A stretch of 64,000 bases of DNA, taken from assembly GCA_047967505.1 (NCBI GenBank), contig CM106538.1; one strand, given 5' to 3'. The notes below the pieces were generated by a model. That model made no database searches. It saw nothing but the letters and a program-made list of their open reading frames with translations, and was not told the DNA's origin. A program made the position numbers and the translations under genes. Shown piece by piece: positions 1 through 64,000 of the stretch. The stretch's first letter is position 1. Each line of letters begins with the position of its first letter. This stretch comes from Dipteris shenzhenensis. Its lineage: Eukaryota.

Positions 1-130
1 ATATGAAATGCTTTGTATATTTTGCGGAAAATTTGCTATAATATTACTATATTAAAAGAAAAAGTATTAGCTTCTTGGGTTTAATCAAAATAAGCAAAGT
101 ATAAAGCCAAGGAAAAGGCTGCATCAAACC

Positions 131-3100
131 TGAGGATGATTGTAATGACTTTGACATTAACCTCTTTCTTAGGATTCAAGAGGATTGAAATCTCTTCTTC
201 ACCAAATTCAAAAAAATGAGGTTGTTGTCGAATTAACAACATAGCGGTGAATGAACTTCCAATCTGCTCCAATAGATTCATATTTTCATGACTCATCTTA
301 TTGAGAGAGTAGTCTACATCATATTCTTCTTCACTTGCTATGTCTTCTACATCCTCCTTCTGCTATAAAAATATAAAAAAGTTATGCGATGTACACATCC
401 CAAATAAAGGCTTAAACAAGCAGATAAGGTTTCATACATGCTTTCATTAGAGTGAGTCTCTCCTCCACTTGGAGCAAAAATTAAAAAAGTAAGGTTTCAT
501 ATATGCTTTCATTATAGTGAGTCTCTCCTCCTCTTGGAGGAAAAATTTAAAAAGTTATGAGATTTACACATCCCAAATAAAAATAAAGGTTTAAATAGTC
601 ATAGAAGTATTAAAATAGCATGCTTTCATTAGACTCAGTCTCTTCTCCTCTTAGAGGAAAATATAAAAAAGTTATGAGATTTACACATCCCAATTTAAGG
701 CTTGAACAAGCATACAAGTATAAAGATAAGGTTTTATACATGTTGCAATGTAGTCATATTTTTAGTTTGTTTCCCAATGGTAGCAATTAGACGCTGAATA
801 CTCTCAGCCCGAAATGCTAGCAGATCGGCTTGTGTATATGATTCCATTTTGACTGGTAACTCCAAATCAAAAATCTCTCTAAGAAACAACATGCAGTTGT
901 AGGCAACTCTCCACCCACAGCTGTGCCCATATTTTTGCTCCATTGGCAGATGTCTTTTGAATTCTACTTGGTCTTGTTGCTCCGTGGTTGTTCTGATAGC
1001 AGATACTAGCCGATATGCGGCACTGTCCATCATGACATATTAAATATATTAATATGTCATGATCATAAGATACAAAATAAGAAAGTATCAAAAATATTAA
1101 GAGAATAATTACCTTGGGGAGTTGGCATGATAGCCTTCCATTGAATTCACAAACCATAAACGGTTGAGTTCAAGGTCCCAAACGATCAGACTCCAATGTG
1201 ACCTACATGACCAAAATAAAAATGATTATTGTTTTACACAAACTTGCCAAAGAAATAGTAAAAATCAGGTTAGAGTTGATACTTACGCCTCATGATAACG
1301 CATAAAGATGACTCGCACCCCATCTAAATTCAAAGGGCTTAACCAGGTACAAACATCTTCTATAGTCTTTTGAGGTGAGCTAAGAATAGAAGAAAGGAGA
1401 GCATTGAGCATGTAGACACGATGCTGCACTGCACTAGGAAGCTAAGAAATAACTACACTGCACTAAGAAATAAACAAACATTAGCTCATAGAATTGATTT
1501 GCATTCTGCACTAGGAAACTGATATATAACTACACTGTAAATAAATAAACAAATGTTAGCTCATTGAAGTAGCAACAAATAAACAAACGTTACCTGAGAA
1601 TGGCCAAGATAACATTGTCATTAACCTCTTTTAAAGGATTGGAGAGAATTGAAACCTCCTCTCTACCAAAGCTCAAATACTGAGGTTCTCGTTTCAAAAC
1701 GATCCTAACTTCAAATGAGCTCTCCATTTTATCCAATGCAGCTAAATTTGCAGAATGGGTCTCTGTCATAGCTTGTATTCTATGTTTGGGGTCATTCTAC
1801 TTTTCCATGGTGTCTTTAAAGCTCTTGTGCTCATGGGATTCTTCAATCAAATTTAGAGGTGGTTGCATTGTTGAAGTAAAAGGGAGTGCCTCCATATTGA
1901 CTTCATCCATTTCTTCTCCCTCTATTGCATGTAAACAAATATGAGAGATTAGATTCATTATCTTTAAATTTAAATCTTATTTAAAAAATTGTATCTAGTT
2001 AAGAAATAGAGAGTACATACTGCTAAGTATTGTCGTAGTGGCTTTTTTTCATAACCTTGCGAGCCATAATTATCAAAGAAGGCATCATCATGTTTGTCTT
2101 CATCCACCAACCTCTCTCTGAACGGGTCATGTAAGTCCATCTTTTCATCATCATCAACTGGGACATTATGATCTTCAAGGTAATCATCCATGTCATCAGT
2201 GTCCTTGTGGTTTATCTCTTTTTTATAGCCTGTGGTTAGATTTGTTTGAAGCTGAAAATAAGCCATGAAATGCTTATTTTCAATAATATTTGTGGAGTTG
2301 CCTTTTCTAAGGAGATCCTTAAATAAATATCCCATCCTGCACAAGGTGACCTCCCAACCTACCGGTAGCAAATTCTCCATCATGGTAAGCAAGAGACTCC
2401 CACTTTTTGCAGGACTTCCATAGTTGTTTTTTTGATAATGTATGGACCTGGGAATATCTTGCTCTTCTAGCATCAATCTCAAATTATTTGAATTCCCTCT
2501 TATGTTCTTTTGTAAGGAGTGATTAGGGTTGGGACTCCGCATACACAAAAAAAAAAAAGATGAATATGCTCACTCTAGAGTAACCTGCATGGCTTCTTTG
2601 TCTTTTTTATCAACAAAAATGACAATGTTGCAAATTGCCACTTTGCTAATGGTGGTATATACTATTCTATCAATGAAGTTATGGATATCATCGCTAGAAA
2701 CTTCATTGATAAAGAGTAGTTGTGGCTTATCCCATGCTGAGTCATTCTTGAAGAAGTCATCTTCTGAGACTCCCTTGAAGTTCACAAGCTTTCCAGACTC
2801 TACCGTAACCTCTATATTGAATTGAAACTTTGGTGCATATCTGTCGGCATCCTTATCTCGCTGATTAATCTTTCCACATGTGCAACCACCTGTTGTGGGA
2901 TTTCTTTTCTCATATAAGAGGTTACTATTTGTAACCCATCTTCATCCTTTTTAATCCACATGTTTGTCCATAGCTTTACCTTGGGTGTTGACAAAGAAGC
3001 TATATGCTTCACCACATTATAGTCAATGTTACAATGAGTAAGTGGCATTTGTTTCTCTGATAGCAAATACTTAATGGCACTATGCACTGCATTCACGCCT

Positions 3101-5146
3101 CACCTGTACATTGATGCATTCTTCCATGCAGTGGTCTTTGTCTTTTTTTCCAAAAAACCATTCTTTCTTTAAAATTTTTTGTGCTGCCATGGATGCATAC
3201 TTGTCAGGTAAGTACTTTATAGGCCTCCACATCCTTGCCATCAACTCCTTCTTATCCATTACCTTTGACTTTCCAGAGATAAACAAAGGAGCTTCATAGG
3301 TCAACTGTCCACGCTCACAAGCAATGCACGTTTCAAGCATCTCATTGAACACTTCAACAGGACAAAATATAATAGAAGTGTAGTCGGCATATCTGTCCCT
3401 CACCACCTTGAGGCTTGTCATACTTTCTTCTTGCTCTTGAGTTCCCCTAGGCACAACTGCACTCAAAGAAGTATAGAAGTTCGTGAGTGTGTCGGCGTCT
3501 GCTTTTGTGACCTTTCGCTTCAAATCAGGATTTGGAGAACCAAATGTTGTCCATATAACCCTTGCCTTCTGTAAGACCTCTGATGTTGAGGATATCTTAT
3601 GCTTTCCATGGACATAATGATTAAGTCTTTTGGACTCAATCAAATACTTGATCTCATGCTTGAATATACAGATTGTTGCAGGATAATAATGGAATGAACT
3701 TCTCTTTCCAAATTGTTCTGAAGTGAGTCTTTTGTCCTCCTTTGCTTCCTTTGCGATCTGATTACAAGCATAAGCCCAATGTTGACCATCAATGGGCTGG
3801 AATCTGCAATGGAGGAGGAATTCCTTCTTTGCTTCCTTTAGCATATTCTCACCTTGTGCCTCTTCGCCTTGTTCATGTGGAATATTTTTAAGTGTCTTTA
3901 AAGAATCGACTGAAGGTTTCCTCAAAATGTGTAGGCCCTGTAAATGTTATTTGATCCAAAAAACTATTTTTGATTGGACAAAACATTATTGGGCGCAAGA
4001 CCACATTGCTTGCCATAGGTTTCTTACCATCTCTCAAAGCCTCGTATATTTGCAGTGCATAGGATATATCAAGGCTTCGGCTATTAGTAAAGATAGCTGC
4101 AGCTTCCACATCTTTGGCATTCATAAACCATGTCCTTTGACCCCAGATATATCCCGCATCATCATCTGTAATTGCTTCATTAAGACGCAGATTAAGATTT
4201 TTGATTGATGTGAGTTCATCCTGATCATCTTCAGGCTCACGTTCTGAGTCTTCTTCATCTTTCTCTTCTTTTAACGGTCTTTCATCCACATTATCTCTCT
4301 CTATAGTGGGACGATGTCTTTTTTTACTATGAACTGTCGCTCTTGCAGTACTAGCCTTTTGCATTTCACATCGTGGTTTGCTAGCAAGAGCTTCTAGCAT
4401 AACTGCAGTGGATCGACCTTCATCTTCTTCAATTTTTTTAATTCCCGTGCACTCAAGGCTTGTGTTTCATCATCCTTAGTTACATCTACCATTTCTTGCT
4501 CTAGAAGTTTACGCTCATGTTCTACACGTTTGTGACAGTGTGCCTGTTCTTCTTGTCCCTGCATCAAAGTCTGAGCTTTTTGATCTCCATCATGTGAAGA
4601 TCCTTGAATATGAGGAGCATATTGTGCATCCTGAAAGTACTCAAACATTATCTTTGCATGCATCCTTTTTGCCACCACACTAGGAAATTGCTCCCAAGTA
4701 TATGAAAGAGTCTCCAATGCACTTTGCAGCTTTGGAAACTTTGATGGTTGAGGAGGAGGCATCACAAAGGTCTTTGAGTCTCTCCTTGACACAACAATAT
4801 GAAGACCGCCAACTTCAGGATCTGAACTCTTTGTAAAAATATCCACAAAAGTCTCTTTTGGCTCTATCATTATGCCTACTATAAGGCTTGAAGTCATATC
4901 TTTTTTGAAGAAAGTAGCATCCCATGGATCTTCAACACCATTGAACTCCCTTTTTGACATAAGTAGAAAGAGTCTCTTTTTCTTTTGATGAAGAAACCAA
5001 GCTCTTCTGCCCATGTGATATCGAGTCCACCTATTAAAGCCATTGGGGCTATATTCCTTTCCTTTGAAATTCAAAGTGACATCAAAAACCCATTCTCTAA
5101 TCTCAGAGTCATTTAGGATAGCCACCACATTAGTTGATTGCTCCAT
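131..5146 (-). pseudogene. Multi-exon transposon-cargo pseudogene: large N-terminal exon with IDGQH (ParB/DGQHR-like) motif, acidic linker, Ulp1/C48-like protease domain, and the start of a second Ulp1-like domain; probably continues beyond the left window edge
   Basis: Acceptor TATAG (5155-5151) lies just upstream of ATG 5146. A chain of frameshifted ORFs follows (4394-5146, 3888-4400, 3080-3925, 2812-3096, 2570-2785, 1970-2548). GT-AG exons then read ~1921-1594 (FGREEVSILSNPLKEVNDNVILAILR), ~1440-1287 (RVIFMRYHE), ~1203-1113 (SHWSLIVWDLELNRLWFVNS), ~1022-740 (EQKYGHSCGWRV) and ~362-131 (FGEEEISILLNPKKEVNVKVITIILR). Frameshifts and an in-frame TAG (~1798) indicate decay. Confidence 0.75.
365..735. 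repeat. Short degenerate tandem repeats (about 3 copies) inside the cargo gene
   Basis: Recurring AAAAAGTTATG(C/A)GAT.TACACATCCCAA and ATGCTTTCATTA.A.T.AGTCTC...CTCC.CTT.GAG blocks. Confidence 0.8.
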
Positions 5147-5199
5147 AATCCTATAAGAAAAGATAATGAAGAATTTAGATACATACAAGTAAAGTACAA

Positions 5200-5810
5200 T
5201 ATACAACACTTGATACAATAAATGTGGGAAATTTCCCAAAAGGCTTTACAAGGCTTCATATGGCAATAAATGTGGGAAATAGCCTAGAAGGCTTTACAAG
5301 GCTTAAATATTTGTACAAATGTAAAAAATTTAGCGAATAAAGCTTTACAGTAATATAAAATGTCATCTAGTGATAAAGCTTCAATCTTCATGAAGACATG
5401 TAATCTGTCCATCCATTGATTTGCCCTCTAGTCATAAAGCTTCAATCTTCATGATGACATGTAATCTGTCCATCCATTGATATCTATGCACTGATACCCA
5501 ACTGATGCAATCTACCCACTAAAAACTATTCCACTGATATCCACTTATGCAGCCCACTGATACTCGTTAAATAGTGAATGGTCGGGTTTATTACAAGGCG
5601 CTTCATATGACAATAAATGTAAAAATTAGCATAGAAGGCTTTACAAGGTTTTTTATGACAATAAATGAGCTTAAATATTTATACAAATGCAATAAAAATA
5701 ACCAATAATCATCAAGCTCCAATATGTCCCATGACATGTAATCTGTCCACTGATATATGTAATCTGTCACTGATATCTGCTCATGCAATCTGCCCACTGA
5801 TAAACTTCTT
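5200..5810. repeat. Small direct repeats in the presumed 5' leader intron of the cargo gene
   Basis: AAGGCTTTACAAGG(C/T)T occurs 3 times and ATAAATGTGGGAAAT twice. There is a ~62-bp tandem (CTAGT.ATAAAGCTTCAATCTTCATGA.GACATGTAATCTGTCCATCCATTGA) at ~5367-5480 and several CCACTGATA copies. Confidence 0.75.
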
Positions 5811-6259
5811 GGTAAATGGTAAACGGTCTTATTTAATAGCATGTTATGAGTGTTAAACTGCATGTGAGTGAAGGGACTGACAACAATTAGGAACTAGTTA
5901 GAAAAATTTGAGCATGGCTTCAATTGGAAACTTGGAGAATTGTCTCTCCTCTAAGGCAATCTAATCTATGCTAAACCAACCATCGAAGCGAAGAAAAGCA
6001 ATAAATAATTTCTTTTTCTGTGTTCATTTTAATGTGCTGGGGTTTAAGAGGCTTAAATATGCAAAAGAAGGGGTTTTGATGTAGAGGCTAAACTTGCATG
6101 TGAGAGAAATGAAGAACAAGTATCTAAAGAAAAGTTAACATTTTTCAATTTAAAAGATGAATATATATAAAAATATTATCTCACCTTCAAAACAAACCAT
6201 AAATTCACTCTTTTATAATTTTTTAAAGGTATAATATAAAACATGTAAATATATAAAAC

Positions 6260-6548
6260 TCTCTTTACTTTCTCTCTCTCTCTCTCTCTCGACTCCTAAA
6301 TCTCTCTGTAGCCATAGTCAAGACACCTCATTCTCTCTCTTAATCTCTCTCTCTCTCTCTGACAACTCTTATGTGTTTCCCTCTCTGTCCTCATCCCACT
6401 CATTCTCTCTCTTAGTTTATCTCAACTCTCTCTTTCTCTCCCTCCCATGGCGGCTAAGATTTTTTATTCTCTCTCTTTATCTCTCTCTCTCTTCCTAGGA
6501 TTTGTAATTATTTCTCTCTCTCTCCATCTCTCTCCTCTCTCTCTCTCT

Positions 6549-6601
<53 letters not shown>

Positions 6602-6764
6602 CCTCTCTACCTCCCTACCTCTATCCTCTTGGCTGCTAGGATTTGTCATTCTTTCCCTCTCTATGTCTCTCTCTCTCTCTCTGAATTCTCTCTCTTAATC
6701 TCTCTCAGCCTTCCTCCCTCCCTCCCTCCCTCCCTCCCTTGGCGGCCACGGCCGCGAGAATCTC

Positions 6765-6797
<33 letters not shown>

Positions 6798-7356
6798 ACC
6801 TCCCTCTCTTGGCGGCCCTCCCTCCCTCCCTTGGCGGCCACGGCCCCGAAGAGCCCATCTTCTCTCTCTTAATTTCTCTCTTTCCCTCTCTCCTCTTGCC
6901 ACGTTTCATTCTCTTAAACTTCTCTCTCTCTCTCCTCTCTCTCCCTCTTAAACTTCTCTCTCTCTCCCTCTCTCTCCCTCTCTCTCTTTCTCCCTCTCTC
7001 TCTTTCTCTCTCTCTCCCTCTCTCTCCCTACTCTCTCCCTCCCTCAAGCAGCCACAGTCGCCAGGAGACCCTCTTCTCTCTCTTAATCTCTCTCTCTCTC
7101 TCCTCTCTCTTTCTTTCCCTCCCTACTCTTCTCTCTCATTTAAGGATCCCCTCTTCTCTTTGTGAATCTCTCTCTCCCTCTCTCCTCTCTCTCTTTCTCT
7201 CCCTCCCTACTCCTCTCATTTCTCATTCTCTCTCTCATTTCTGTTCTCTCTCCCTTTGGCGGCCACGGCCGCCAAGAGCCCCTCTTCTCTCTCTTAATTT
7301 CTCTCTTTCCCTCTCTCCTCTCTCTTTCTCTCCCTCCCTATTCTCTCTCATTTCTC
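6260..7356. repeat. CT-rich low-complexity/microsatellite tract with interspersed TTGGCGGCCACGGCC motifs
   Basis: (CT)n runs, with GGCGGCC motifs at ~6740, 6810, 6832 and 7258. Confidence 0.9.
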
Positions 7357-7627
7357 AAATTTACAAACTCAAATATAAATAAGAAACTAATTAAAATAGA
7401 ACTCAAAAACTCAAATAAGAAACTAATTTAAAAAGAATTGTAATGCCTTCTAAAAAACCCTTTTCCTCAAAAACTTTAACAATAAACTAATTGAAAAAGA
7501 ATTGTAAGTAAAGCAAAAGAATTACAAGACGAATTTTAAGAAATACAACTCAAAAACTTTAACAAGAAACTAATTGAAAAAGAATTGTAAGTAAAGAAAA
7601 AGAATTACAAGACGAATGAAAAAGAAA

Positions 7628-22820: not shown

Positions 22821-22948
22821 AACTTCTCCCACCAATAAATTAAGTACTAATTAAAAATTATAATAAATGAGTAGATTATTAAAAAGAGACTAATATTTAT
22901 GTAATTGTTGCTACTACAGCTTGCTTGCGAAGGACTCTCACAGAGGAG

Positions 22949-25900
22949 ATGGCTATAGATTTTGTTCCAGGGATGGATGTGATTTCATGTAGCAAAAGAG
23001 AAGTAGTTGCATTTGCTACAATCCATGATAGTGATCCCAATTCAGTTTGCCACTTTCGAAGACTTGGCGAAGATAAGGTGGCAGTTACTGTATCAAAGAT
23101 TCTTAGCACACATGTTGAGCTAAAGTATAAATGTGGAGATATGGAAACACTTGGAGATGTTATGCCCTACAATACATCCAACAAATCATTTATAGCATGG
23201 GACAAAGATGAGACTTATGCAGCAGACATTATCAAGAATACAAAGTGCACCACCTTGGATTTTACTATAGGGGACATTTTACAAATGAGATCATTTCCAA
23301 ATAAGACTGTAGCAGAAGGTGAAGTATTGGGGGGTTGAACAAGTGGAGCAATGGTCATTTGCACAGATGAGGATTCGAAAAGTCACTGATGATGGTATGG
23401 TCGATAACATAACATCCTTATGTGATCCCTACTATGAGGTAGGCAAGAATATGAGATGGAGCATGCAATTTTTAAACATGAGAAAGAGGCACATGGTTTT
23501 CAATGATAAAGACAAAGTATACTACAATATCAAAGGACCTAAAAAGCGTGCCCATGTGCCAGGCTCTATCACTTCAAATGTGGATGATTTCAATATACTC
23601 AATTATAGAAGTGACATCTGGAGTGGATGAGTTCATTGGTTCCGAGAAACAAAATGATTTTAGAAGTGAAGCCTTATCTGGGGTGGATGAATTCTTGCAC
23701 AGTGAGAAGGGCAAAGGTTTCAATAGCGATGTCTTGTCAAGTGTGGATGAGTTCATGCATATTAACAAACCTGGTGTCAATCAAGCTTGTGGATTTGTGA
23801 AAGCCATGCAAGATGTCCCAATGAGTGATGTTCTCTCAGGAGTGGAAGAGTTTCAAGGTTCTCAATACTCTTGTAGAATATTGAATTCATTGAATGGTCC
23901 TAAGAGTATGTTAAAAACGAGGATGAGATCAACAGAGGATTATTCAATATTTAACTTTGATTGTGATATGGCCAAGGATGCAACGACCAATCATGGATGC
24001 TTGGTTACAAACAAATGTGAGAAGAAGAAGTGCATAAATACAGATAACAACATGCACGAGGAACGAAAACGGTCATACATATGCATGAAGAGAAAGCGAA
24101 TCCAGGCAGATCCACAAAAGCAACCAAAGAGGAAGAGAGTAATGAAGGAGGAGAACATGTTAAATGCATTGGGATATCTATGTTGCAAGCGAAGATATAT
24201 GCGCTTCATTGATCTTGCAGGCATCAGGGAATGTAGAGGGCACGTGTGGCAAAGAAGAGGAAGCAAAAGAAATGAATACCTTCTCACAAGTCTCTCTTGC
24301 TTTCTTCAGAATGGCAATAAAAGGCTAAGTTCAAGACAAAAGGTAAAACCTCTCGTAAATGGAAAAAGGATTTGCAATAAGGCATATCGCAATATTACTA
24401 GATTATCCCATTGTACATATTGGGATTTAGTCACCAAGGCAAAGGGCGGCAACAAATTTAGCATTCACGATAATAGAGGAAGGTCCAAATCAAGAATCTC
24501 AATTGTCAGGGCAGCAGCAATTTTGCAAGACTTCATACATGAAAATGCTTTATCTCAACCCCATATATCTACCAAACTCCCTAATAGTGACGCGATCACT
24601 GAAATGCACCTTGCAATGGGCTTGACAAAGCTTGAAGTATTTGACTCTATTGCAAAAAAGCAAAGGCAAAGAGGGGATGCCATAGCGTCTTCTCATACTT
24701 TGTATACTCTTTGGAAGAAGAACTTTGGATATGTTAAAATCCCAAGGAGGCAAAAAATATCAAAGTGCAATGTATGTGATGATTTAAAGCGAGCGATTGA
24801 GAGTGCAACATGTCCAAATCAAAGGGAATTATACAAAAAAAACTGAAAATCTCATCATGACCTTATTCGACATTCCAGACAAAAATATGCATTTTGGAAG
24901 GAGCAAGCTATTTCGCATCCCGAAGACTACATGTGCCTTATTGCAGATGGCATGGATCAGAATACGACAACATTACCTCATCTTGTTGCCACTCCACCTA
25001 AATTACAAGGAAAGCACTTTCTAAAGACACATCTATGTGGAGTGTTAGTGCATGGAATTAAGTTCTTTGTAGATATATGGATTGATTCCTTACATGATAG
25101 CAATCAAGTTGTAACATCTATTATGAAGGCAATTCGCAATGTACATGCAGAAAAAGGTCGCCTACCACCAACTTTGAGAATACAAGCTGATAATTGCTAG
25201 CGAGAAAATAAGAATGTACTCATGTTTGCATTCTGCTCCATGCTAGTTGCTCATCGAATCTTCAATGAGGTCGAATGTGGATTTTTGTATGTTGGGCATA
25301 CACATGAGGATATCGATCAGGTTTTTAGCACAGTCTCAAGGGAGCTTAAATGCAAGGATGTGGAGACAATAGATGACTTGGTAAGAAGATGTGGCAGGCA
25401 AGTTGGTGGTCGTAAGGAAAGTACAGTATGTGAGAGGCTCGAAAGAATGTATGATTGGAAGAGCTTCATTCTACCTTTCATACAAATGGGTGGTGATGCA
25501 TTGATAGGTCATACCAATCCACACTACTTTCGTTTTTTTTTGAAAGATGAAAAACCTGTAATGCAATGGCAACAGTATTCTCATGATACAAAATGGGAAC
25601 CTGAAGAACCTTACAGTCTCTTAACTTCAATTCCCAGCAAGGAAAGGTATCCAACATGGGCTCCTATACAAGAATTCAATGAGAGGTCTAACTGTGAAAT
25701 AGAAGGATTAAAAGCATTTATTACATACAAAGAGGAAATGTTCCAGAGATATCCTGATTCGAAGCCTACTTGGAGAGAACACACTACCACTATAATTAAC
25801 AAGACATGAAAGAAATTTAATAAAGGACCTTGAGAGAATGAGAGGCTCAAAGGATGTCAAGGAAGAATGCAATATGTTTTGGCCAAATGTTCATAACGAT

Positions 25901-26413
25901 TTGCACCCAGCTCCAGTCTTTGAAAATGAATTTGTATCATTACTCCCACGTCCATATTGTGGACCGAAGAAGAGAGAGTTTATGCCACAAGTAGATATAA
26001 AGGTCGATTGTTTTGTTGTGGTTCGGCCATCAGATGATGAATATGAGAATGTGAAGTTTTGGGTTGCAAAAGTAGTTGATGCGCAAAGAGATGACCAAGG
26101 GAGAGCTACAACATTTACAGTGGTATGGTATGAGCCAAAGGGCAGGAAGGAGAATATGGATAACAACACATTGTATACTAATTGTATAATGAAAGAGTGG
26201 GTCCCAAATGATGAAGCGGTCTCTCAAGTTTCGACGGAGACAATCATAGTGTCTTGGCATTCAAGGGCAAAGAAATCAAAGAAGCGCATGGGATATGAGG
26301 TAGAAGGAAAAATAAAAATACCATAGCAAACTATTTTGCATATACACGAATTTTTAAGGATGCTCGCCATGGAGGAAGTAGAAGGAGACAGCGCAAATGA
26401 AGAATGTCCATGA
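22949..26413 (+). pseudogene. Decayed DUF7869/Sola1-like transposase with N-terminal Tnp1/En/Spm-like domain(s) and a C-terminal SH3/Tudor-like segment
   Basis: Motifs ISKCNVC, CLIADGMDQNTTTLPH, THLCGVLVHG, PPTLRIQADNC*RENKN, FLYVGHTHEDIDQVFS, PHYFRF and FWVAKVV...VVWYEP. Frameshifts occur at ~23335, ~23625 and ~24840, and stops at 25198, 25807 and 26324. Acceptor CTACAG at 22919 precedes ATG 22949. Confidence 0.8.
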
Positions 26414-26530
26414 TTAAAGCTTTGTATTGAAGTCCATTGAAGGATTTTATTTGGGTACTAGGGAAGAAGCCAATCCAAGACAATTATAATCAGAGTCATC
26501 ACTTCCTATGTCAAATGAGAGTCAAAATAT

Positions 26531-26940
26531 GCACTGGATGTCACCCAAGGGTCAAGGCTTTTGCCAAGACAATAGGGAGTTAATGCAGATGGCACCTGGC
26601 AAGGGACTATCACATTGAGCAATAAGACAATGGGGAGTCAATGCACCCAAGGGGCAAGGCTTGGCAAGACAACTTGTGGGAGTTAATGCAGATGGCACTT
26701 GTATTTTGCACTGGATGTCACCCAAGGGTCAAGGATTGGCAAGACAATAGGGAGTTAATGCAGATGGCACCTGGCAAGGGACTATCGCATTCAGCAATAA
26801 GACAATGGGGAGTCAATGCACCCAAGGGGCAAGGCTTGGCAAGACAAATGGGAGTCAAATTATGCAGATGGCACCTGGCAAGGGACTGTCGTGACATTGA
26901 GCAATAAGACAATGGGGAGTCAAATTATGTAGATGGCATG
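26531..26940. repeat. ~178-bp tandem duplication built from shorter AAGACAA.GGGAGT.AATGCA subunits
   Basis: GCACTGGATGTCACCCAAGGGTCAAGG at ~26531 and ~26708; GCAGATGGCAC occurs 4 times. Confidence 0.85.
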
Positions 26941-27389
26941 AATTGAGGCTCTTTAAGAGCAACAATTTAAATTGTAAACATATGTTCAATCTATATCATT
27001 TTGGATATAAAGACTCTAGCTGAGAGCAATGTCTCTCAATGTAATCATATAATAATAGCTATAATTGCTATTATACCTCTTTGGTTCAATACAAACTTGG
27101 GTCTTATGGCATCATGTCTTTTTTCTATTTATTAAAAGTTTTAAAAATTTTGTGCATATTGCGAGTGACAATGTTATTTTCATGAAATATTTAAGTCTCC
27201 TTTCACGGACTTATAAATTTATCACGTCAAGGAAAAACATCAAGGAAAAATATTGAAAATAATTAAATTAACAAATAACTTAGATATAGCTAGAATTTCT
27301 AATATAGGATTATTTCAAATTCTTGCATGTTGTTGCAAAAGTATAGATTGAAAAAACAATATTTTTATGTGAATATGATAGTGCCACAA

Positions 27390-27542
27390 AGTGAACTTTT
27401 GATTTGGGAAGAATATTTTCAGAATGTAAAATTTTGATTTGGGAAGGATATTTTCACAAAGTAAAGTTTTCATTTGGGAAGGATTTTTGGGCTTCGTCCA
27501 AAAACAATAGAAAAAGTCCAAAATTAATGAAATAGGTGTTAA
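27390..27542. mobile_element. Putative right subterminal repeats/terminus of the large DUF7869-type element
   Basis: Three ~35-bp repeats TTTT(G/C)ATTTGGGAAG(G/A)AT(A)TTTT, then AAAATTAATGAAATAGGTGTTA, abutting CACTA coding sequence. The same repeat and end motif occur at 51730-52080. Confidence 0.55.
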
Positions 27543-30058
27543 CGTGGATCCTCTCTACGAGGGAGGAGGCAGTGATTAAGGTAGACATTGCCTCTTTTCA
27601 AACACCGACAGGTACATGCGTTGCATGAAAGGAGCATTTTCAAAGGACAATAAGCTTAGTGGGCTCAAGTCCCATGATTGGCAGAAGGTCTTACAGGTAT
27701 TCTAAGCTATAGAATTAGTGTACCGATAATCATGATGCGTTAGCATCATTATGATTATGTTATATTGTTGACATGACTTCTTTGTTGCTTTGATAGTTCA
27801 TCCTCCCAATTACAATAAAAGGTTGCTTACAAGAAGATGTTAGAAATGCTATATTCAAGATCAATGGTATTGTGAGGTATTCTTACTATCAAATCACATT
27901 GATTGCATTTTCTTCAATTTAACCTGAATAATCTATAGATTGATTATGAATATATCTTACATGGACATGTGAAATAGGTGGATATCTCAAAAAGAGATCT
28001 CCATATCGAGCATCGAGAAGGCTAGGGTGGAATCCATCGAAGCCATATGCTTGCTTGAGAAGCACTTTCCCTCGAGCATTATGACAACTCAAGTCCACTT
28101 GCTTGTGCACATAGTTGATGAGGTGGCTATTGTGGGTACCGTTCATAGTCGATGGATGCTTTTTCTCGAGTGGTTTATGAAAACTTTGAAGGGATTTGTA
28201 AGACAAAGAGCAAGACCAGAAGCAAGCATGGTAGAGGGATGGCTTGTGCAAGAGTCATTAGTATATATCATGGAGTTTCTTGCATCCATAGATTCTAATA
28301 TGCCGCAAGCTTGGCATAACAAGGATGATGATCGCATCGTTGGCGAGGTTCCCCAAGGAAAAGGGGTTGAAAGAAAGATGAGCGAAAAGCAGAAATTCAA
28401 TAAGTTTTGTATCCTCAATAGCCCTGAGATGCAAAAGTGGTTTGAGAGATATGAAGTGGCCAAAGCAGAAAGAATAAATGCAAGGACGAGATTAAGAGTA
28501 ATGTACAGGCGATCGCAACCATGTCCACGGGATCTGGCTCTTCTCCCCACTCACATGTCACTTGATTGGCTACAACTGGCTCTACGTAAAGCTGAACGCG
28601 ATGGAGAGACAATAAACAAGTGCGAGCGAGAGTTATCATCTGGATGTATGATGTATGTAATTTTCTTACCTCTTGACGTAATTAACTAATTATTTGTGGC
28701 AATATACGCTATAAAATAGATGCATCTTCATTGTTTTAATGATGCTCTTTTATAGTACAAAAAGTATAGTGCATTATGGTCATATGGATGACATTTTTGC
28801 GTGGAATGCATCGATTCAAAGAGAGTCACATATGATTGTGGAGTCATGGCTATCTTCACACAGGGTAGCCAAGAAAGTGCTTTGGATACCAATCTTCTCT
28901 CCTCACAGTTGGATTATTGTGGAACCATACGCGAAATCTATGAAGTTGATTTCAGACGATTTAGTATTTTCATTCTTGATGTAAAATGGTTTAGAACTAT
29001 TTACAACGGTCCCCCTGCGACAGTGAGAATAGATAGTAGCGGTTTCTTTGCAATAGACTCCACCAAACATTGGACCGATGAAAGTGATACTTTTGTTCTT
29101 CCCGAGCACTGTGAGTAGGTGCATACTAATGATTTAATTAATCGAAGCTTTTGTTTTTAAAGATCCATTGATACATGTACTTAAGCATAATTTCATATAT
29201 ATAATTGACGACATCTAGCACCCATCTTCAATATAGGTGGTTTTTCATCCAGATCGTTCTAATCCAAGATGGTGGTACGTGATCCAAGTTGCACCATGAA
29301 GTAAGCAAATTTTTGAAGATAGAGATGTGGATATGGGGATGCCACTACCAATGCTGGATCCAATTGATCCCGATGAATCTAGAAAAGAAGATGAAGATCA
29401 CAATATGAGCCAAGAGGAAGATGCACATAATGACATCACATAGAAGGAAGATGGAGATCACGATATTGAGGAAGAAGACAACGATCATCAAGAATCACCA
29501 CACTTTATTGAAGAAGATGATCAAGTACTTTTAGGTGAACGTACGATGCTAGAGTACGATGATGATATAGGATATCAACTCGGTATAGAGTTAGAGATAG
29601 ACTTGTTTGGTGCATTAGACTTGGCTCAAAATGAAACAGTTGATGTAAATGCTCTTCATTGATTTTTTTCATCTCAAACTTGGACATGAATATATGAGCT
29701 TCAAAGGCTTGATGTACATGCTCTCATACTTTTAGTCTCTCAAAAGATCAAACATGTATGAAAATTTAAAAAAATTTACCATTGGAAAAAACTAACTTTT
29801 AAGGCCTATATGAGTAAAAAAGCTCTCTGGAAAAGTCGCTATAAAATAGTATCTCAATGTCACTATATAGTGACACTTACATTTTTGACAAATGTTGCAA
29901 TATAGTGACTTTAGAAATCGTCACTGTATAGTGACATTTGCTTAAAGTCGCTATATAGTGATGCTTTACGGGATGCGCTTCCCATACCGATGATTAGCAC
30001 CCCACGCATGCTAAACGTCGGTACTTAAACATCGCAATAGCATCCGTGTGTAGTAGTG
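27543..30058 (+). mobile_element. CACTA/En-Spm transposon, 3' half (TnpD-like pseudogene with DUF4218- and DUF4216-like exons, subterminal repeats, right TIR)
   Basis: Exons read LSGLKSHDWQKVLQ|, EKHFPSSIMTTQVHLLVH...RWM...KGFVRQRARPEASMVEG and YCGTIREIYEVDF...DVKWF...FVLPEHCE, followed by an acidic tail. GTC(G/A)CTATATAGTGA repeats lie at 29835-29962, and the element ends TGTGTAGTAGTG at 30058 (reverse complement CACTACTACACA). Confidence 0.9.
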
Positions 30059-39320: not shown

Positions 39321-42300
39321 ATGGCCCAGCCCACAAGACTACGAATCCCACCGTTTGGCGAAAGCGGAAAGTTGGACAGCACTAACTATCCACTCTAGAA
39401 GTTCAAGATGAAGACCATCCTAAGTGCATACGAGCTTTGGGATACTACTACTAGGGTGGAGATGAAGCCGGTCCAATCCAACCAATGCAGCACAATAGAT
39501 AGTACCAACTGTGGATGAGATTCTCGCATGGACAAGAAGAAACGCAGATGCGCTATGTTCTATTGTCTGCAGTGTAAGTGATTCTATCATGGCATTAATT
39601 CAACATGTCACCACAACAGAGGAGGTATGGACGGTCTTGAAAAATCAATACGAGACCACGAATCAGATGCGTATTCAGAATTTGGAGACTCAACTCGCAA
39701 ACGAGAAACTGTCTAAGTCTAAAGCGACAGAGAAGTTCATCACCAGGGTGAAGAATCTGGGCGATTAGATGACATCGATTGGCATCACCATCACCAGCAA
39801 GAATCTAGCATGAAGGTGCATACAGATTCTCCCACCAAAGTACGATGGTCTTGTTACGGTGCTCAATATGTAGAACAAAAAACCGCCCCTCAACTTTGAG
39901 GATTTTAGCACGATGCTTCTAGAGGAGGAGATGTGTCAAAAGACGAGGACTGGAGAAGATTCGGCTTTCTACGCTGGATCAAAGAAAGGTAAGGGTAAGG
40001 ACTCTGGTAACCCATCTTCTTCTGATGATAAAAAGAGAAAGAAGAAGATCAAGTGCTTCTATTGCAACAAGGCAGGGCACAAGTAGAATGAGTGCTGGAA
40101 GAAGATTGTAGATGAGAAGAACGGAGTAAAGAAAGAGTCTAGCAATAGCGCTTAGGCAGTACCAGTAGAGCTATTTGTAGCAATTGAGGAGATTTGCACA
40201 GAGGCAGTTCATGTACCTGCGGATGGTCCTTGGATTATTGACAGTGGTGCATCGCGCCACATGACCAGCCAAATGGATTGGTATACCTCTCTACATCTGG
40301 TAGGGAATGACATCCTGGTAGCAGTCGGCAATGATGCAAAATGTCCAGCAAAGGAAAGGTACAATTGCTCTCAAGTCATATGGAGTTGTAAAATAGTTGT
40401 ACGATGTTCTTTATGTGCTAGATATCAAGAGGAACTTGTTGTCCGTTTTTGTGATCACGGATCGGGACCTCAAAGTTCACTTTAATAAGAATGGTGCACA
40501 AATTTTGGATCTTCAAGGGAAGGTCGTTGGTAAAGGTACACAGCACAACAACATCTACAAATTCTTAGCCTTCAGTGCTCGAGCTAATGTGAAGAACACT
40601 AAGCTATGGCATGAGAGGTTTAGTCATCTAAACCTTCTTTAAAGGAGATGCATAAAAGTGGAATGATTGCAGACCTACCAGAAATTACAAATCTACTCGA
40701 TGTATGTGAAGCTTGCATGATGGGCAAACAACATTGGTAGACCTTTCCTAAAGAGGCTAGCAGGGCAAAGGCTCCTCTAGAGCTCGTTCACACGGACCTC
40801 TGCAGAAAGATGGAGATGGAAGCTTTGGGTGGTTCCTACTACTTCATGATGCTGATCGATGACTATAGTAGAAGGATATGGATATACTTCCTGAAGACTA
40901 AAGACGAGGCTTTTAGTAAGTTCAAGGAATGGCATGTAATGGTCGAGAAAGAAACGGGGACGAAGGTGAAGAAGTTGAGATCAGACAGAGGTGGAGAGTT
41001 CACATCAAGTGAATTCGGAAGTTATTGCAAAAGTCACAGGATCAAGAGGCAGAAACCCCCGCCACATACATCACAGCAAAATGGAGTAGTAGAATGCACG
41101 ATGCGCGTCATCTACGAAATGGGCAGGAGTATGATGAAAGGGAAAGATTTGCCAAAGACTTTTTGGGCTGAAGCATGTAACATGGCAGTTTACATTCTGA
41201 ATCATAGCTACACGAAGGCTGTGAACGGGATGACTCCACTACACGCCTTTTCTAGTAAGAAACCTTCAGCTGCACATTTCAGAGTTTTTGGATGTGACTG
41301 TTTTGTGCATGTCCCTGATGCTAATAGGACCAAATGGGAACCGAAGAGCCGGAAGTGTATTTTCTTGGGCTACAGTGAAGAGGAAAAGGGTTACCGTCTC
41401 TATAACCCTGTTACTAAGAAGGTAATAGTAAGTCACGATGTGGTCTTCTTAGAACAGCCGCATCAATTGGAGGAGGATGCTTCCTTCCCAGACAACTAGG
41501 ACTAGAATATCCATCCAGTACAACCACCAACAGCAGACCGAACCCCCCCAACGGTGCTTGGGAGGATTCAAGATAAAGAAGAGGAAGAAGAGCCTGCAGA
41601 ACCACGATGGCAACGGCCATTCCCAAAGTGGGTAAAGCAACTTTTGGACAGCAGAGAACCTCTAGCCATTGAGGAGAAACCATCCAAACACTGCCGGTCC
41701 AAGAGATTAGAGGAGCAAAGAAGGGCGCAGGAACAAGTCTTGGTCAACTATGCTTTGATGACAGAGGTGATCCATGCTGATGAACCCAAGTGTCTTGAAG
41801 AGGCACAAGGTGATGACAGGTGGATGGAGGCTATGCAATCAGAGTATGGCTCCATAATGAAGAACAACACTTGGGACCTTGTGGATCATCCACCAAAACA
41901 CAAGGTAATTGGAACCAAGTGGGTGTACAAGACCAAGTACAAGTCCGACAACACGTTGGATAAGTACAGGTACATGGTTTTGATTATCAAGATACTTTTT
42001 CTCCCATAGCTTGACTCGTGGCAAAAGGATTTGCACAGGTACATGGTTTTGATTATCAAGATACTTTTTCTCCCATAGCTCGACTAACCACAATTCACAG
42101 TGTATTGGCTTTAGCTGCCAAGGGAAGTTGGCCCGTGTTTCAGATGGATGTAAAATTCACCTTTCTGAATGGAGATCTCAAGGAGGAGGTATACGTGGAA
42201 CAACCACCAGGTTTTGTGATCCCCGGTTCCGGTTAAGAAGGTAAAGTCTATAAACTAAAGAAGGCACTTTATGGGCTGAAACAAGCCCCACGAGTGTGGT

Positions 42301-62234: not shown

Positions 62235-64000
62235 AATATCTAAAGAGATTGGCTATAGATACCATCAAGAGTCTCCGCACAAGGTATCCCAATCCAAATC
62301 ACCTTGAGTTCACTAATGAGAGTGCTCTCAACGGAAGCAAGAACGGAAGAAGGAGAGAGAGAGACAGAGAGCCACACAAGTTTTGGTGGGTGCAGAACAC
62401 CCTAATCTTCTTTTTCATTCATTTATATATGTGTTTGAGTATTGTACATAACCGGGGTAAAGGCACAGTGACCTTTAACCCCCACAACCTCCCACTTAAA
62501 GGAAAATGTGCCTTTAAGGGAGAACAACCAGTGAGCATACTATCCAATGCCCATCAATACACGACAATACTCAAATCGCTGACTAGGTAGACTCTTTGTC
62601 AGCATATCTGCAGGGTTATCATCTGTATGAACCTTGACAAGCTCTATGCACTTGTCCTCAAGTACCTCCCTGATGAAATGGTACCTGACCTCAATGTGTT
62701 TGGTCTTTGCATGAAAGACTGGATTTCGTGCTAGCTGAATAGCACTCATGGAATCACTATGCAATGTCGGTACACCTGTATGAATCCCCAAATCTCCCAC
62801 TAGCCAATCAAGCCATATAGCCTCCTTGCAACCCTCTGTGGCTGCAACATACTCAGCCTCTGTGGTAGACACACCACCCTAATCTTCTTTTTCATTCATT
62901 TATATATGTGTTTGAGTATTGTACATAACCGGGGTAAAGGCACAGTGACCTTTAACCCCCACAACCTCCCACTTAAAGGACAATGTGCCTTTAAGGGAGA
63001 ACAACCAGTGAGCATACTATCCAATGCCCATCAATACACGACAATACTCAAACCGCTGACTAGGTAGACTCTTCGTCAGCATATCTACAGGGTTATCATC
63101 TGTATGAACCTTGACAAGCTCTATGCACTTGTCCTCAAGTACCTCCCTGATGAAATGGTACCTGACCTCAATGTGTTTGGTCTTTGCATGAAAGACCGGA
63201 TTTCATGCTAGCTGAATAGCACTCATGGAATCACTATGCAATGTCGGTACACCTGTATGAATCCCCAAATCTCCCACTAGCCGATCAAGCCATATAGCCT
63301 CCTTGCAACCCTCTGTGGCTGCAACATACTCAGCCTCTGTGGTAGACAAAGCAACGCACTTCTGTGTGTGAGACATCCACGACACTGCACCACCTGCAAA
63401 GGTGAACACATAACCAGAAGTGGATCTCCTACTATCCACATGCCCTGCATAGTCTGAATTTGTGTACCCAAGTACACGCATGTCTCCTTTACCAAAGCAA
63501 ATGCACATCTCCTTGGTACCCTTCATGTACCTCATGATGCACTTAACTGCCTCCCAATGCCTCTTTCCTGGATTAGCCATATACCGGCTAACAACTCCCA
63601 CTACAAATGCAATGTCTGGTCTAGTAGCTATCATAGCATACATAAGACTCCCAACTGCTGATGCATAAGGAGCCTTGGCCATCATGGCCCTCTCCTCCTC
63701 TGATTTGGGACTATCTGTATGACTCAGTTTCACATATGGAGGCAATGGAGTACTCACTGCCTTCTCCCCCTCCATATTGAAATGCTGTAATACTTTTGTA
63801 ACATACTCTTTTTGTGAAAGCCAAAGGAGTTTCCTACTCCGATCACGCGTGATGCGCATACCAAGAATATGACCTGCAAATCCCAAATCCTTCATATCAA
63901 AGGCCTCATGCAACTTGGCCTTTAATGCATCTAGCTCATAAGTATTCTTGCTAGCCAATAGCATATCATCCACATATAGTGCCAGGATTATCAGGCTACT
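62235..64000 (-). mobile_element. 3' end of a Ty1/copia element (Tnt1/Tork-like RT-RNase H, PPT, 3' LTR ~62228/62235-62486); continues beyond the window
   Basis: LALYVDDMLLAS, FDMKDLG, PYASAVGSLMYAM, SRRSTSGYVFTF, VALSTTEAEY and KTKHIEVRYHFIRE. PPT AAGTGGGAGGT precedes TGTGGGGG on the minus strand. Confidence 0.95.
62398..63348. repeat. 477-bp near-identical tandem duplication covering RNase H tail, PPT and first ~89 bp of the LTR
   Basis: CACCCTAATCTTCTTTTTC at 62398 and 62875; TGTGGTAGAC ending at 62870 and 63347. Confidence 0.97.

Follow-up and report, generated by a model that had tools for sequence, protein, structure and literature searches.

A stretch of 64,000 nucleotides from contig CM106538.1 of Dipteris shenzhenensis (assembly GCA_047967505.1), hereafter called the window, carries a broken gene on its minus strand, between positions 5146 and 1970. 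An earlier note had singled out this region for a ParB/DGQHR-like motif and a possible dead DNA methyltransferase, fused upstream of Ulp1 domains. Our analysis indicates, with a probability of roughly 0.6, that the gene is a decayed copy of a repeated gene of a rare protein family, which we refer to as the DGQH family, and that it encodes a DGQH domain of the ParB/Srx type. The window itself is plant-like and eukaryotic, as judged by copia-type integrase and reverse transcriptase open reading frames (ORFs), DUF4218 and DUF7869 sequences, and spliced exons. The features of the gene and its surroundings are listed in Table 1.

Pieces A to E form one reading frame in other copies

All four peptides that the earlier note had quoted from this region were found in the minus-strand translation, with IDGQH located exactly at the reported positions 3793-3779, and the end coordinate 5146 proved to be the A of an ATG codon (MEQSTNVV, 5146-5123). 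The quoted peptides sit in differing frames, and the 3.2-kb region is composed of six stop-to-stop pieces, A to F. This showed that the frameshifts, which had previously been assumed, are real. Pieces E and F lie in one frame and are parted by a TGA at 2572-2570. When expressed as the first-base coordinate modulo 3, the frame offsets are 1 for A, 2 for B, 1 for C, 0 for D, and 1 for both E and F.

Five public sequencing runs from three studies, none of them recorded as RNA, contain part of the stretch, the best shares being 0.38 and 0.29. Contigs of four DNA runs (X1, X2, X3 and X5, of which X3 and X5 contain small shares of the stretch only) were compared with positions 1-5400 of the window at a likeness of at least 80%. 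In X1, 120 contigs matched: 19 at 99% or more, 64 at 95-99%, 29 at 90-95% and 8 below 90%. Since up to five distinct contigs of X1 were found at one place, and many were 90-99% alike, the element is multi-copy. The other copies carry small insertions or deletions at each of the four frame breaks of the window (Table 1). At the second break, the two additional letters AG place ...FFKDT and LKNIPHEQ... in a single frame (modulo-3 arithmetic, 2 to 1). Moreover, the changes in frame offset from A to E (+1, +2, -1 and +1) are exactly the indel sizes seen in the other copies, and pieces A to E therefore constitute one reading frame in those copies. Introns were considered as the cause of the frame breaks and rejected: the sole GT..AG pair near the second break (approximately 4026-3940) keeps frame B, which still stops at 3890-3888, and the other copies show plain indels at these sites. 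These pieces are thus parts of a single long gene, which is present in the window as a decayed copy with four indel frameshifts relative to the other copies.

Further differences were observed downstream. At 2551-2559, the window copy has a net deletion of 78 bases, a multiple of 3; the joint 2551/2559 was seen in X2, and loose ends were seen in X1 and X5. An additional 87 bases at 1750-1836, likewise a multiple of 3 and including the window's stop at 1799-1797, are absent from the other copies, while X2 and X3 have three surplus bases at 4329-4330. Taken together, the window copy contains an in-frame stop and, relative to the other copies, has four frameshifts, 78 bases deleted and 87 bases inserted. 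If the TGA at 2572-2570 were also private to the window copy, the frame would continue through piece F and comprise about 1,050 codons.

Relatives of pieces B and C

When 1.84 billion representative proteins were searched with piece C using HMMER, 11 relatives were retrieved at E ≤ 1e-3, three of which were at E ≤ 1e-10, the best E being 9.1e-17. The single named relative, a hypothetical protein of 177 aa, comes from the clubmoss Diphasiastrum complanatum. The others are unnamed ENA or Logan records, mostly fragments, along with proteins of 542, 589, 1097 and 1199 aa. In local BLAST comparisons with the 1199-aa protein (P0012), residues 103-189 of piece B matched residues 250-339 and piece C matched residues 340-523, so that the regions matching B and C abut in this intact relative. 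In addition, of the 1600 ORFs of the window, a profile built from three long members matched B (E 8.6e-6) and C (E 6.8e-24) and no others, and a read-through of the window bridged with X residues was colinear with the 1199-aa and 1097-aa members through the N-terminal domain and the middle region in a global alignment. For the remaining pieces, no relative of piece A was found, with local BLAST against family members giving no significant match, and nothing significantly similar to piece E was detected in Pfam, the family BLAST, the family profile, NCBIfam or PADLOC.

The most conserved motif of the family is EP[VI]DGQH, in which P, Q and H are invariant or nearly so. It belongs to a conserved series (GY[VI]WG; T-N-x-R with a helix ending ..Y..L; LTLRPI; F-x-G-x-GG; [WF]-[EQK]-P-[VI]-DGQH-..-AC; F...F..RPA..V.Y; Y..ES.R.N; K.R..W..[FY]G.P), in which piece B aligns with GYVWG...TNHR...LTLRPI of P0012. 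T-N-x-R is present in the window, P0004, P0012 and P0005, and P0010 has Q for R. The xR...LRPI...DGQH pattern to which the earlier note had drawn attention is therefore conserved across the family in the alignment. The same holds for the absence of the arginine: after DGQH, the window has W, P0001 and P0002 have F, and the remaining seven sequences have I or V, so that R occurs at this place in none of the ten. Intact relatives consequently do not restore DGQHR, a check that the note had proposed.

Judged from these sequence comparisons, pieces B and C belong to a rare eukaryotic family that has no Pfam, NCBIfam or PADLOC match and has EP[VI]DGQH as its hallmark. Pfam gave no family in the six relatives tested and nothing relevant in nine window pieces. 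A word-indexed protein search found no match among longer proteins for piece C, nor for P0012 residues 255-1000, and the ESM Atlas returned no usable match for piece C. Pattern scans with WEPVDGQH and a further motif produced 44 matches from JGI metagenome contigs and another 12 from prokaryote genomes, but none was confirmed as a relative. No match to P0004 was found by tblastn among 50,697 phage records. Furthermore, our literature searches found no description of a DGQH family. The window thus draws attention to a protein family that is missing from the curated libraries searched and that has a testable signature in EP[VI]DGQH.

The ENA record P0012 starts with MARTKQTAR (residues 1-9), which is absent from the other family members and from every frame of the window. 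These residues are letter for letter the start of the N-terminal tail of histone H3, and the start of P0012 could be a histone-tail mimic.

Similarity of the N-terminal domain to bacterial DGQHR domains

The relationship of the family's N-terminal domain to ParB-type proteins was assessed with hhalign, leaving secondary-structure terms aside in all comparisons. Against 20 bacterial DGQHR-domain proteins, the domain scored 23.9 (P 0.012), with DGQH placed on DGQHR; under looser extension, TN-x-R...vY..L of the family also fell on QR..Ri..I..Yi of these proteins. None of 115 valid column-shuffled queries reached 23.9 (mean 10.7, standard deviation 1.9, maximum 17.6), although column shuffling is a lenient null and the match is to be read as nominal. 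The reversed query scored 12.6. As a positive control, the DGQHR proteins were compared with canonical ParB, which gave a score of 23.6 (P 0.029). In this set-up, the family is therefore as similar to the DGQHR proteins as the DGQHR proteins are to ParB.

The correspondence with DGQHR/DndB-type proteins (TIGR03187) is not limited to the motif itself. Both contain, in the same order, (Q/N)-x-R, a helix ending in Y, a hydrophobic strand and [VI]DGQH opening a helix, and the distance from the start of the domain to the motif is alike, with DGQHR at residues 99-157 in 19 bacterial proteins and DGQH at residue 110 in P0004. On the other hand, the family has the arginine of DGQHR replaced by W, F, I or V and about 45 residues, forming two helices, inserted before the motif. 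The family protein is also far larger, and it resides in a eukaryotic repeat or transposon context rather than in a phosphorothioation or defence locus.

An AlphaFold2 model of P0004 residues 1-193, based on 13 aligned sequences, had a mean predicted local distance difference test (pLDDT) score of 63. It comprised a helix at 27-38, a strand at 49-55 (LTLRPI), the two inserted helices, a strand at 104-108 (WEPV), a helix at 111-127 starting at QH, and strands at 145-151 and 154-160, so that DGQH is located at a strand-helix junction. When this model was compared with 350,542 PDB chains by Foldseek, nothing was found at E ≤ 0.001; ranks 1-4, 6, 9 and 10 were taken by the ParB-like PadC and Spo0J, at E values of 0.55-1.3 only, and ranks 22, 29 and 47 by KorB and two ParB entries. 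A structure search of BFVD likewise gave nothing at E ≤ 0.001, and ParB-, DUF262- or Srx-like names appeared at ranks 4, 13, 24, 25 and 41. In a model of full-length P0012 (mean pLDDT 39), residues 305-395 alone were confident (pLDDT 84-94), and Foldseek and VIA searches with this model returned noise only.

Together, these findings make it likely that the conserved N-terminal domain is a divergent member of the ParB/Srx superfamily, with the bacterial DGQHR (DndB-type) domain as its closest counterpart. It probably retains the N-x-R helix, a hydrophobic strand (LRPI) and, at the strand-helix junction, DGQH, and has lost the arginine in every member. Such a domain probably binds DNA or nucleotide poorly or differently, and would act as a targeting or regulatory module rather than as an enzyme. 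What probably stands of the ParB/DGQHR assignment in the earlier note is hence a remote superfamily relation; membership does not, as the arginine is absent and no curated profile scores.

A possible methylase ancestry of the C-terminal half

Conceivably, the whole protein derives from a ParB-methylase fusion. The C-terminal half would then be a beta-class N6_N4 methylase lacking DPPY and FxGxG, and piece F would represent a degenerate motif I. This idea extends the reading of the gene as a DGQH-family member with a ParB/Srx-type domain. Conservation between P0012 and P0004 extends over the C-terminal 300 residues, and residues 719-930 of P0012 were modelled as alternating strands and helices, at low confidence. 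Nearly all named entries among the listed language-model neighbours of P0004 residues 415-710 were clusters of PF01555 (N6_N4_Mtase), with a score of 0.81, and the ten best family-bearing neighbours all belonged to one family or clan. A language-model score below 0.9 is a lead only, since a third of shuffled proteins also obtain a first match of at least 0.8 together with ten concordant neighbours. Two further observations are in agreement with the fusion. In a scan with a position-specific scoring matrix for the DPPY block, NAVF[LM]LPP ranked 4th of 1187 and 2nd of 1085, and the single local hhalign match lay in the register of motif I, placing IISASAPSDWMI-ALVGLT..RVVFFE on ILASSNPGDIVLDPFAGSFTT..RKFIGIE. 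Lastly, ParB-methylase accessory proteins occur in algal transposons (PMC12477816).

Other results speak against a methylase, and to that extent against our interpretation of the gene. The AlphaFold2 model of the C-terminal domain remained below a pLDDT of 50. Compared with 43 diverse N6_N4 methylases, the domain obtained an hhalign score of 16.8, which was reached by 27 of 120 shuffles; the P value was 0.19, or 0.35 when the window was added, and ranged from 0.19 to 0.52 across tests. A search with hmmsearch --max using the 43-sequence methylase profile reported nothing for P0012, P0004 or the window read-through, and no PF01555 match in Pfam (cut-off 26.7 bits) was found for window pieces or homologues. 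In matrix scans for methylase blocks X, I and IV, the predicted sites ranked 1-201 of about 1,100, with negative scores. At the candidate sites for motif IV, P0012 and P0004 have DCRT/DCRR or LPPG/LPPS and the window has FINE or FVDK, none of which conforms to (D/N/S)PP(Y/F). Those for motif I (ALVGLT, IVQGLT and LCRMGY) retain one glycine and the downstream glutamate, and this glutamate, ending the putative beta-2 strand, is kept in all three sequences. The earlier note was correct in that DPPY and FxGxG are both absent, which applies to P0012, P0004 and the window alike, and FxGxG is accordingly not restored in any of the three.

With regard to the window itself, pieces D to F were not significantly similar to the family's C-terminal domain, as hhalign aligned just an E-x-IPQ..V block (P 0.29). 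In a global MAFFT alignment only, piece D aligned with KRYAVRNALRWL and EHLIPQRIVVWMRQKI of the family, and piece F stood opposite the family's PSDW..GLT..RVVxxE block with no statistical support. The link between piece F and methylases therefore rests on two unproven steps. We consider it possible, though with the odds against it, that the alpha/beta domain at the C-terminus of the family is what remains, devoid of catalytic activity, of a beta-class N6/N4 DNA methylase, and we assign about the same tentative standing to the fusion as a whole. The ancestor would in that case have been a fusion of ParB with a methylase, of the kind found in phages and in the accessory genes of algal transposons. 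Methylase descent of the piece F peptide highlighted by the earlier note is a lead that is less likely still. The dead methylase postulated there is hence not demonstrated: the profile tests were at chance level, and the language-model neighbours at 0.81 were the sole positive result.

Weighing the ParB ancestry

The reading of the gene as a DGQH-family member with a ParB/Srx-type domain also has to be weighed against a lineage-specific repeat or transposon protein that has no ParB/Srx ancestry, that represents a new fold or a generic helical bundle, and in which N-x-R and DGQH arose by convergence or chance. Several results favour this alternative at the expense of the ParB-type domain. No ParB or DndB/DGQHR profile was found at E ≤ 1 when Pfam was applied to nine pieces and six homologues, and NCBIfam (including the DGQHR model TIGR03187) and PADLOC gave nothing relevant at E ≤ 1 for four pieces and six homologues. 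Searches of PDB sequences yielded nothing for piece C and one unrelated match (E 0.88) for the family profile. Furthermore, the significant part of the DGQHR match spans just 17 columns at default stringency, and three template families were tried. Of the other two, 27 canonical chromosomal ParB proteins gave a P of 0.24 in the wrong region (the helix-turn-helix), and 10 phage proteins whose N6_N4 methylase domain follows an N-terminal extension gave 15 columns, with PVDGQHILWACQEIA on LVDGHNRFEICGRLG, at a P of 0.14. All Foldseek E-values were at least 0.38, and the defining arginine is absent from every sequence. Three observations nevertheless argue for ParB ancestry. The ParB family had been named in advance and ranked first among the PDB chains; DGQHR was the only nominally significant profile match, at a level equal to that of the DGQHR-ParB control; and the N-terminal motif and its spacing were colinear with those of DGQHR proteins under looser extension. 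We therefore regard an origin outside the ParB/Srx superfamily as unlikely. Were the ParB link wrong, the gene would be one more orphan ORF of a decaying plant repeat.

Ulp1-like modules adjoin the gene

Downstream of the pieces, on the same strand, four exons with GT..AG introns were read by eye as a Ulp1-like module. They comprise FGREEVSIL...AILR (1670-1593), an exon at 1441-1286, SHWSLIVWD... (1201-1112) and ...EQKYGHSCGW... (1039-737). To the eye, H..Q..C (HWSL from 1198 and EQKYGHSCGW at 943-911) fits what we take to be the Ulp1 motif, with N (FVNSM) in place of the expected Asp. No profile confirmed the Ulp1 domains that the earlier note placed downstream, which is a further point against our interpretation: Peptidase_C48 was matched by none of the Ulp1-like pieces, scanned as single exons. 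SENP7 was the top PDB-sequence match for the last of the four exons searched, with a weak E of 0.63.

A second, tandem module starts further along, and the gene runs off the start of the window. In contigs of X1, X2 and X3, a joint was found that leads from 1636 back to 179 with six surplus letters. As this joint occurs in three runs, the protease module is a tandem repeat unit, and because other contigs skip 93-1592 or 1207-1592, the number of modules varies between copies. Between the two protease modules, two to three copies of a 65-nt repeat unit were noted (425-555 and 400-720), probably within an intron or spacer.

Ulp1-like domains are common on plant transposons, and the KI-MULE/Kaonashi and CACTA elements of plants carry a Ulp1 protease. 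The present element resembles them in being a repeated plant element with Ulp1-like exons, although the Ulp1 identity here is unconfirmed by any profile. The KI-MULE/Kaonashi and CACTA elements are not known to have a DGQH or ParB-type domain in the same gene, and our literature searches found no description of a ParB-Ulp1 fusion.

Table 1. Features of the DGQH gene and its flanks, ordered along the window
Feature	Position	Strand	Remarks
Start of second, tandem Ulp1-like module	81..362	-	Runs off window; 46% identical over 52 aa (E 1.3e-12) to exon 1 of the first module
Ulp1-like module	734..1925	-	Four exons, GT..AG introns, read by eye
Piece F	1973..2569	-	Stop-to-stop ORF 2569-1970; 'MTase-like' peptide and acidic tail
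PAKSGSLLL...NSTNIIE	2413-2279	-	'MTase-like' (methyltransferase-like) peptide quoted in the earlier note, in piece F
In-frame TGA and deletion site	2551..2572	-	TGA at 2572-2570; then 85 letters in other copies against 7 in the window
Piece E	2573..2827	-	Stop-to-stop ORF 2941-2570; contains KPQLLFINE and ICNIVIFVDKK (2635-2603)
KPQLLFINE	2728-2702	-	Quoted peptide, in piece E
Frame break 4 (D to E)	2827..2828	-	Other copies have an additional G behind 2827 (X1, X2, X3)
Piece D	2828..3091	-	Stop-to-stop ORF 3099-2812; AVHSAIKYL 3090-3064, KEIPQQVVAHVERLI 2907-2863
Frame break 3 (C to D)	3092	-	One surplus base in the window, left out in all four runs
Piece C	3093..3890	-	Stop-to-stop ORF 3946-3080; core of conserved domain and middle region; FQPIDGQHWAYAC, YLIESKRLN 3646-3620, MWRPIKYL 3232-3209
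Candidate ParB/Srx-superfamily (DGQHR-type) domain	3620..4154	-	Divided by frame break 2
FQPIDGQHWAYAC	3802-3764	-	Quoted peptide, contains IDGQH
IDGQH motif	3779..3793	-	Next residue W, not R
Frame break 2 (B to C)	3888..3892	-	Other copies have an additional AG behind 3890 (X1, X3, X5, part of X2)
Piece B	3891..4431	-	Stop-to-stop ORF 4466-3888; acidic linker, then start of conserved domain; GYIWGQ 4154-4137, FTNSR from 4091, VVLRPIMF 4004-3981
FTNSRSLDISYALQIYEAL	4091-4035	-	Quoted peptide
Frame break 1 (A to B)	4432..4438	-	In or beside an A-run; other copies have an additional T behind 4432 (X1, X5) or C behind 4438 (X2, X3)
Piece A	4439..5146	-	Stop-to-stop ORF 5245-4394; N-terminal ~235 codons from ATG 5146-5144 (MEQSTNVV...)
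Direct repeats upstream of ATG	5215..5803		58-, 60-, 40- and 20-24-nt families

Comparison with ParB-effector proteins and a possible role

Fusions of ParB-type domains with enzymes that modify DNA or chromatin came to notice only recently, among the accessory genes of giant algal transposons, with roles that are only proposed in the accounts drawn upon here. In Ectocarpus, the 21.5-kb element Sola1-1_Ec32 is described as encoding a 1104-aa accessory protein with ParB-like and N4C/N6A methylase domains, on the strand opposite the transposase, and 'similar proteins' are mentioned for green and red algal transposons (PMC12477816). In the red alga Bostrychia, a study of Plavaka elements reports PAG2, an N6A methylase joined to SET, and PAG3, a ParB N-terminal domain joined to a 2-oxoglutarate oxygenase; tandem inverted repeats lie beside PAG3 in red-algal Plavaka elements, and its authors suggest that PAG3 binds the element that carries it (10.1101/2025.02.11.637652). 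In addition, a further study notes that chlorophytes and chytrids have Dam-type enzymes fused to ParB-helix-turn-helix, and that the methylase domains in DIRS1 elements are inactive (PMC4738411).

As far as its published description goes, the Sola1-1_Ec32 protein resembles the gene studied here in being large (about 1,100 aa), in residing on a repeated element and in having an N-terminal domain that is, in the present gene, probably of the ParB type. The 1097- and 1199-aa members of the DGQH family also share with it a C-terminal alpha/beta domain, which has N6_N4-methylase language-model neighbours. In contrast to that account, in which ParB and methylase domains are recognizable, the DGQH family has neither a curated-profile match nor catalytic motifs, and the window protein runs on into Ulp1-like modules. 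PAG3, as reported, likewise joins a ParB-type domain to another effector on a DNA transposon and has repeat arrays adjoining the gene. Its effector is an oxygenase, whereas the one found here is Ulp1-like and possibly includes a dead methylase, and the upstream repeats in the window are direct, not inverted.

A further comparison concerns phage and bacterial methylases with N-terminal extensions. In these proteins (for example, those of loci L039, L040, L042, L046 and L058), the block [IV]LDG[RH][HN]R..AC near the N-terminus aligns with PVDGQH..AC of the family, and an N-terminal module is followed by a methylase. They differ in scoring 128-175 bits to PF01555, for which the family has no score, and the similarity had a P of 0.14 over 15 columns. 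In the same phage N6_N4 methylases, with L059 in addition, the extensions are 200-300 residues long and carry the ILDG[RH][HN]R block. No Pfam ParB family was found in them at E ≤ 0.001, and ParB_N was not found in five viral records (one sub-threshold match occurred elsewhere). The extensions resemble a divergent form of the ParB-type domain that escapes curated models.

The gene would best be filed with the ParB-effector accessory proteins of algal transposons, as a catalytically silent form joined to Ulp1-like modules. A speculative mechanism can be envisaged, in which the DGQH domain tethers the protein to repeats belonging to the element that encodes it, for example those at 5215-5803. 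Such tethering would bring a Ulp1-like deSUMOylase, acting on the small ubiquitin-like modifier (SUMO), to the chromatin of the element, which might blunt silencing by the host. It is improbable, but worth stating, that a domesticated bacterial ParB/DndB-type module, with or without a dead methylase and itself no longer an enzyme, serves as a sequence-specific anchor delivering tandem SUMO proteases and that the gene amounts to a self-targeted anti-silencing device. We see an equally slim chance that this anchor is the land-plant counterpart of the algal ParB-effector genes, in which case the H3-tail start of P0012 would add chromatin mimicry. If the DGQH family is a further, enzymatically silent branch, the DNA-anchoring half would be the part that selection keeps, with one effector exchanged for another on a re-used anchor. 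The branch occurs in a plant-type genome, where it adjoins SUMO-protease-like modules, and it has a relative in a clubmoss.

Mobility and genomic surroundings

The gene is multi-copy and probably transposon-borne. Its placement on a plant transposon by the earlier note is plausible in view of the multiple copies, their decay and the transposon-rich region. Counting against this interpretation, no element ends were found, no transposase, terminal repeats or target duplication could be tied to the gene, and a repeat search of 5150-6300 found no inverted repeats. These absences, together with the normal GT..AG introns in the 3′ part of the gene, would suit a non-mobile pseudogene of an ordinary multi-copy host gene family lying among transposons, but this is very unlikely given that the four runs contain numerous copies, 90-99% alike and each with indels of its own, with up to five distinct contigs at one place. 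The tandem duplication of the protease module, the repeats directly upstream, the transposon-rich region, the occurrence of relatives as fragments on short contigs and the frequency of Ulp1-like domains on plant transposons also speak against it.

Among the direct repeats upstream of the ATG, AAGCCTTGTAAAGCCTT was found at 5240, 5288 and 5635 and consists of two AAGNCTT half-palindromes. Its pattern has four matches in the window against 0.26 expected, and none of 100 shuffles reached four. The upstream repeats are candidate protein-binding sites.

Several other elements were noted in the window. A run of large ORFs at 22883-28689 on the plus strand contains DUF7869 (25201-25809, E 5e-33) and DUF4218 (27973-28689, E 7e-24), which are of the transposase type; it lies on the strand opposite the DGQH gene, at a distance of 17.7 kb. 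Copia-type pieces are located at 40741-42009 (plus strand) and 63203-64000 (minus strand), and comprise rve and SH3-like integrase domains, and RVT_2. Closer to the gene, the segment 8000-10400 has a G+C content of 72% and long open frames in several phases, with proline-rich or glycine/arginine-rich repeats. This G+C-rich block is flanked by CT/GA microsatellites at 6200-7400.

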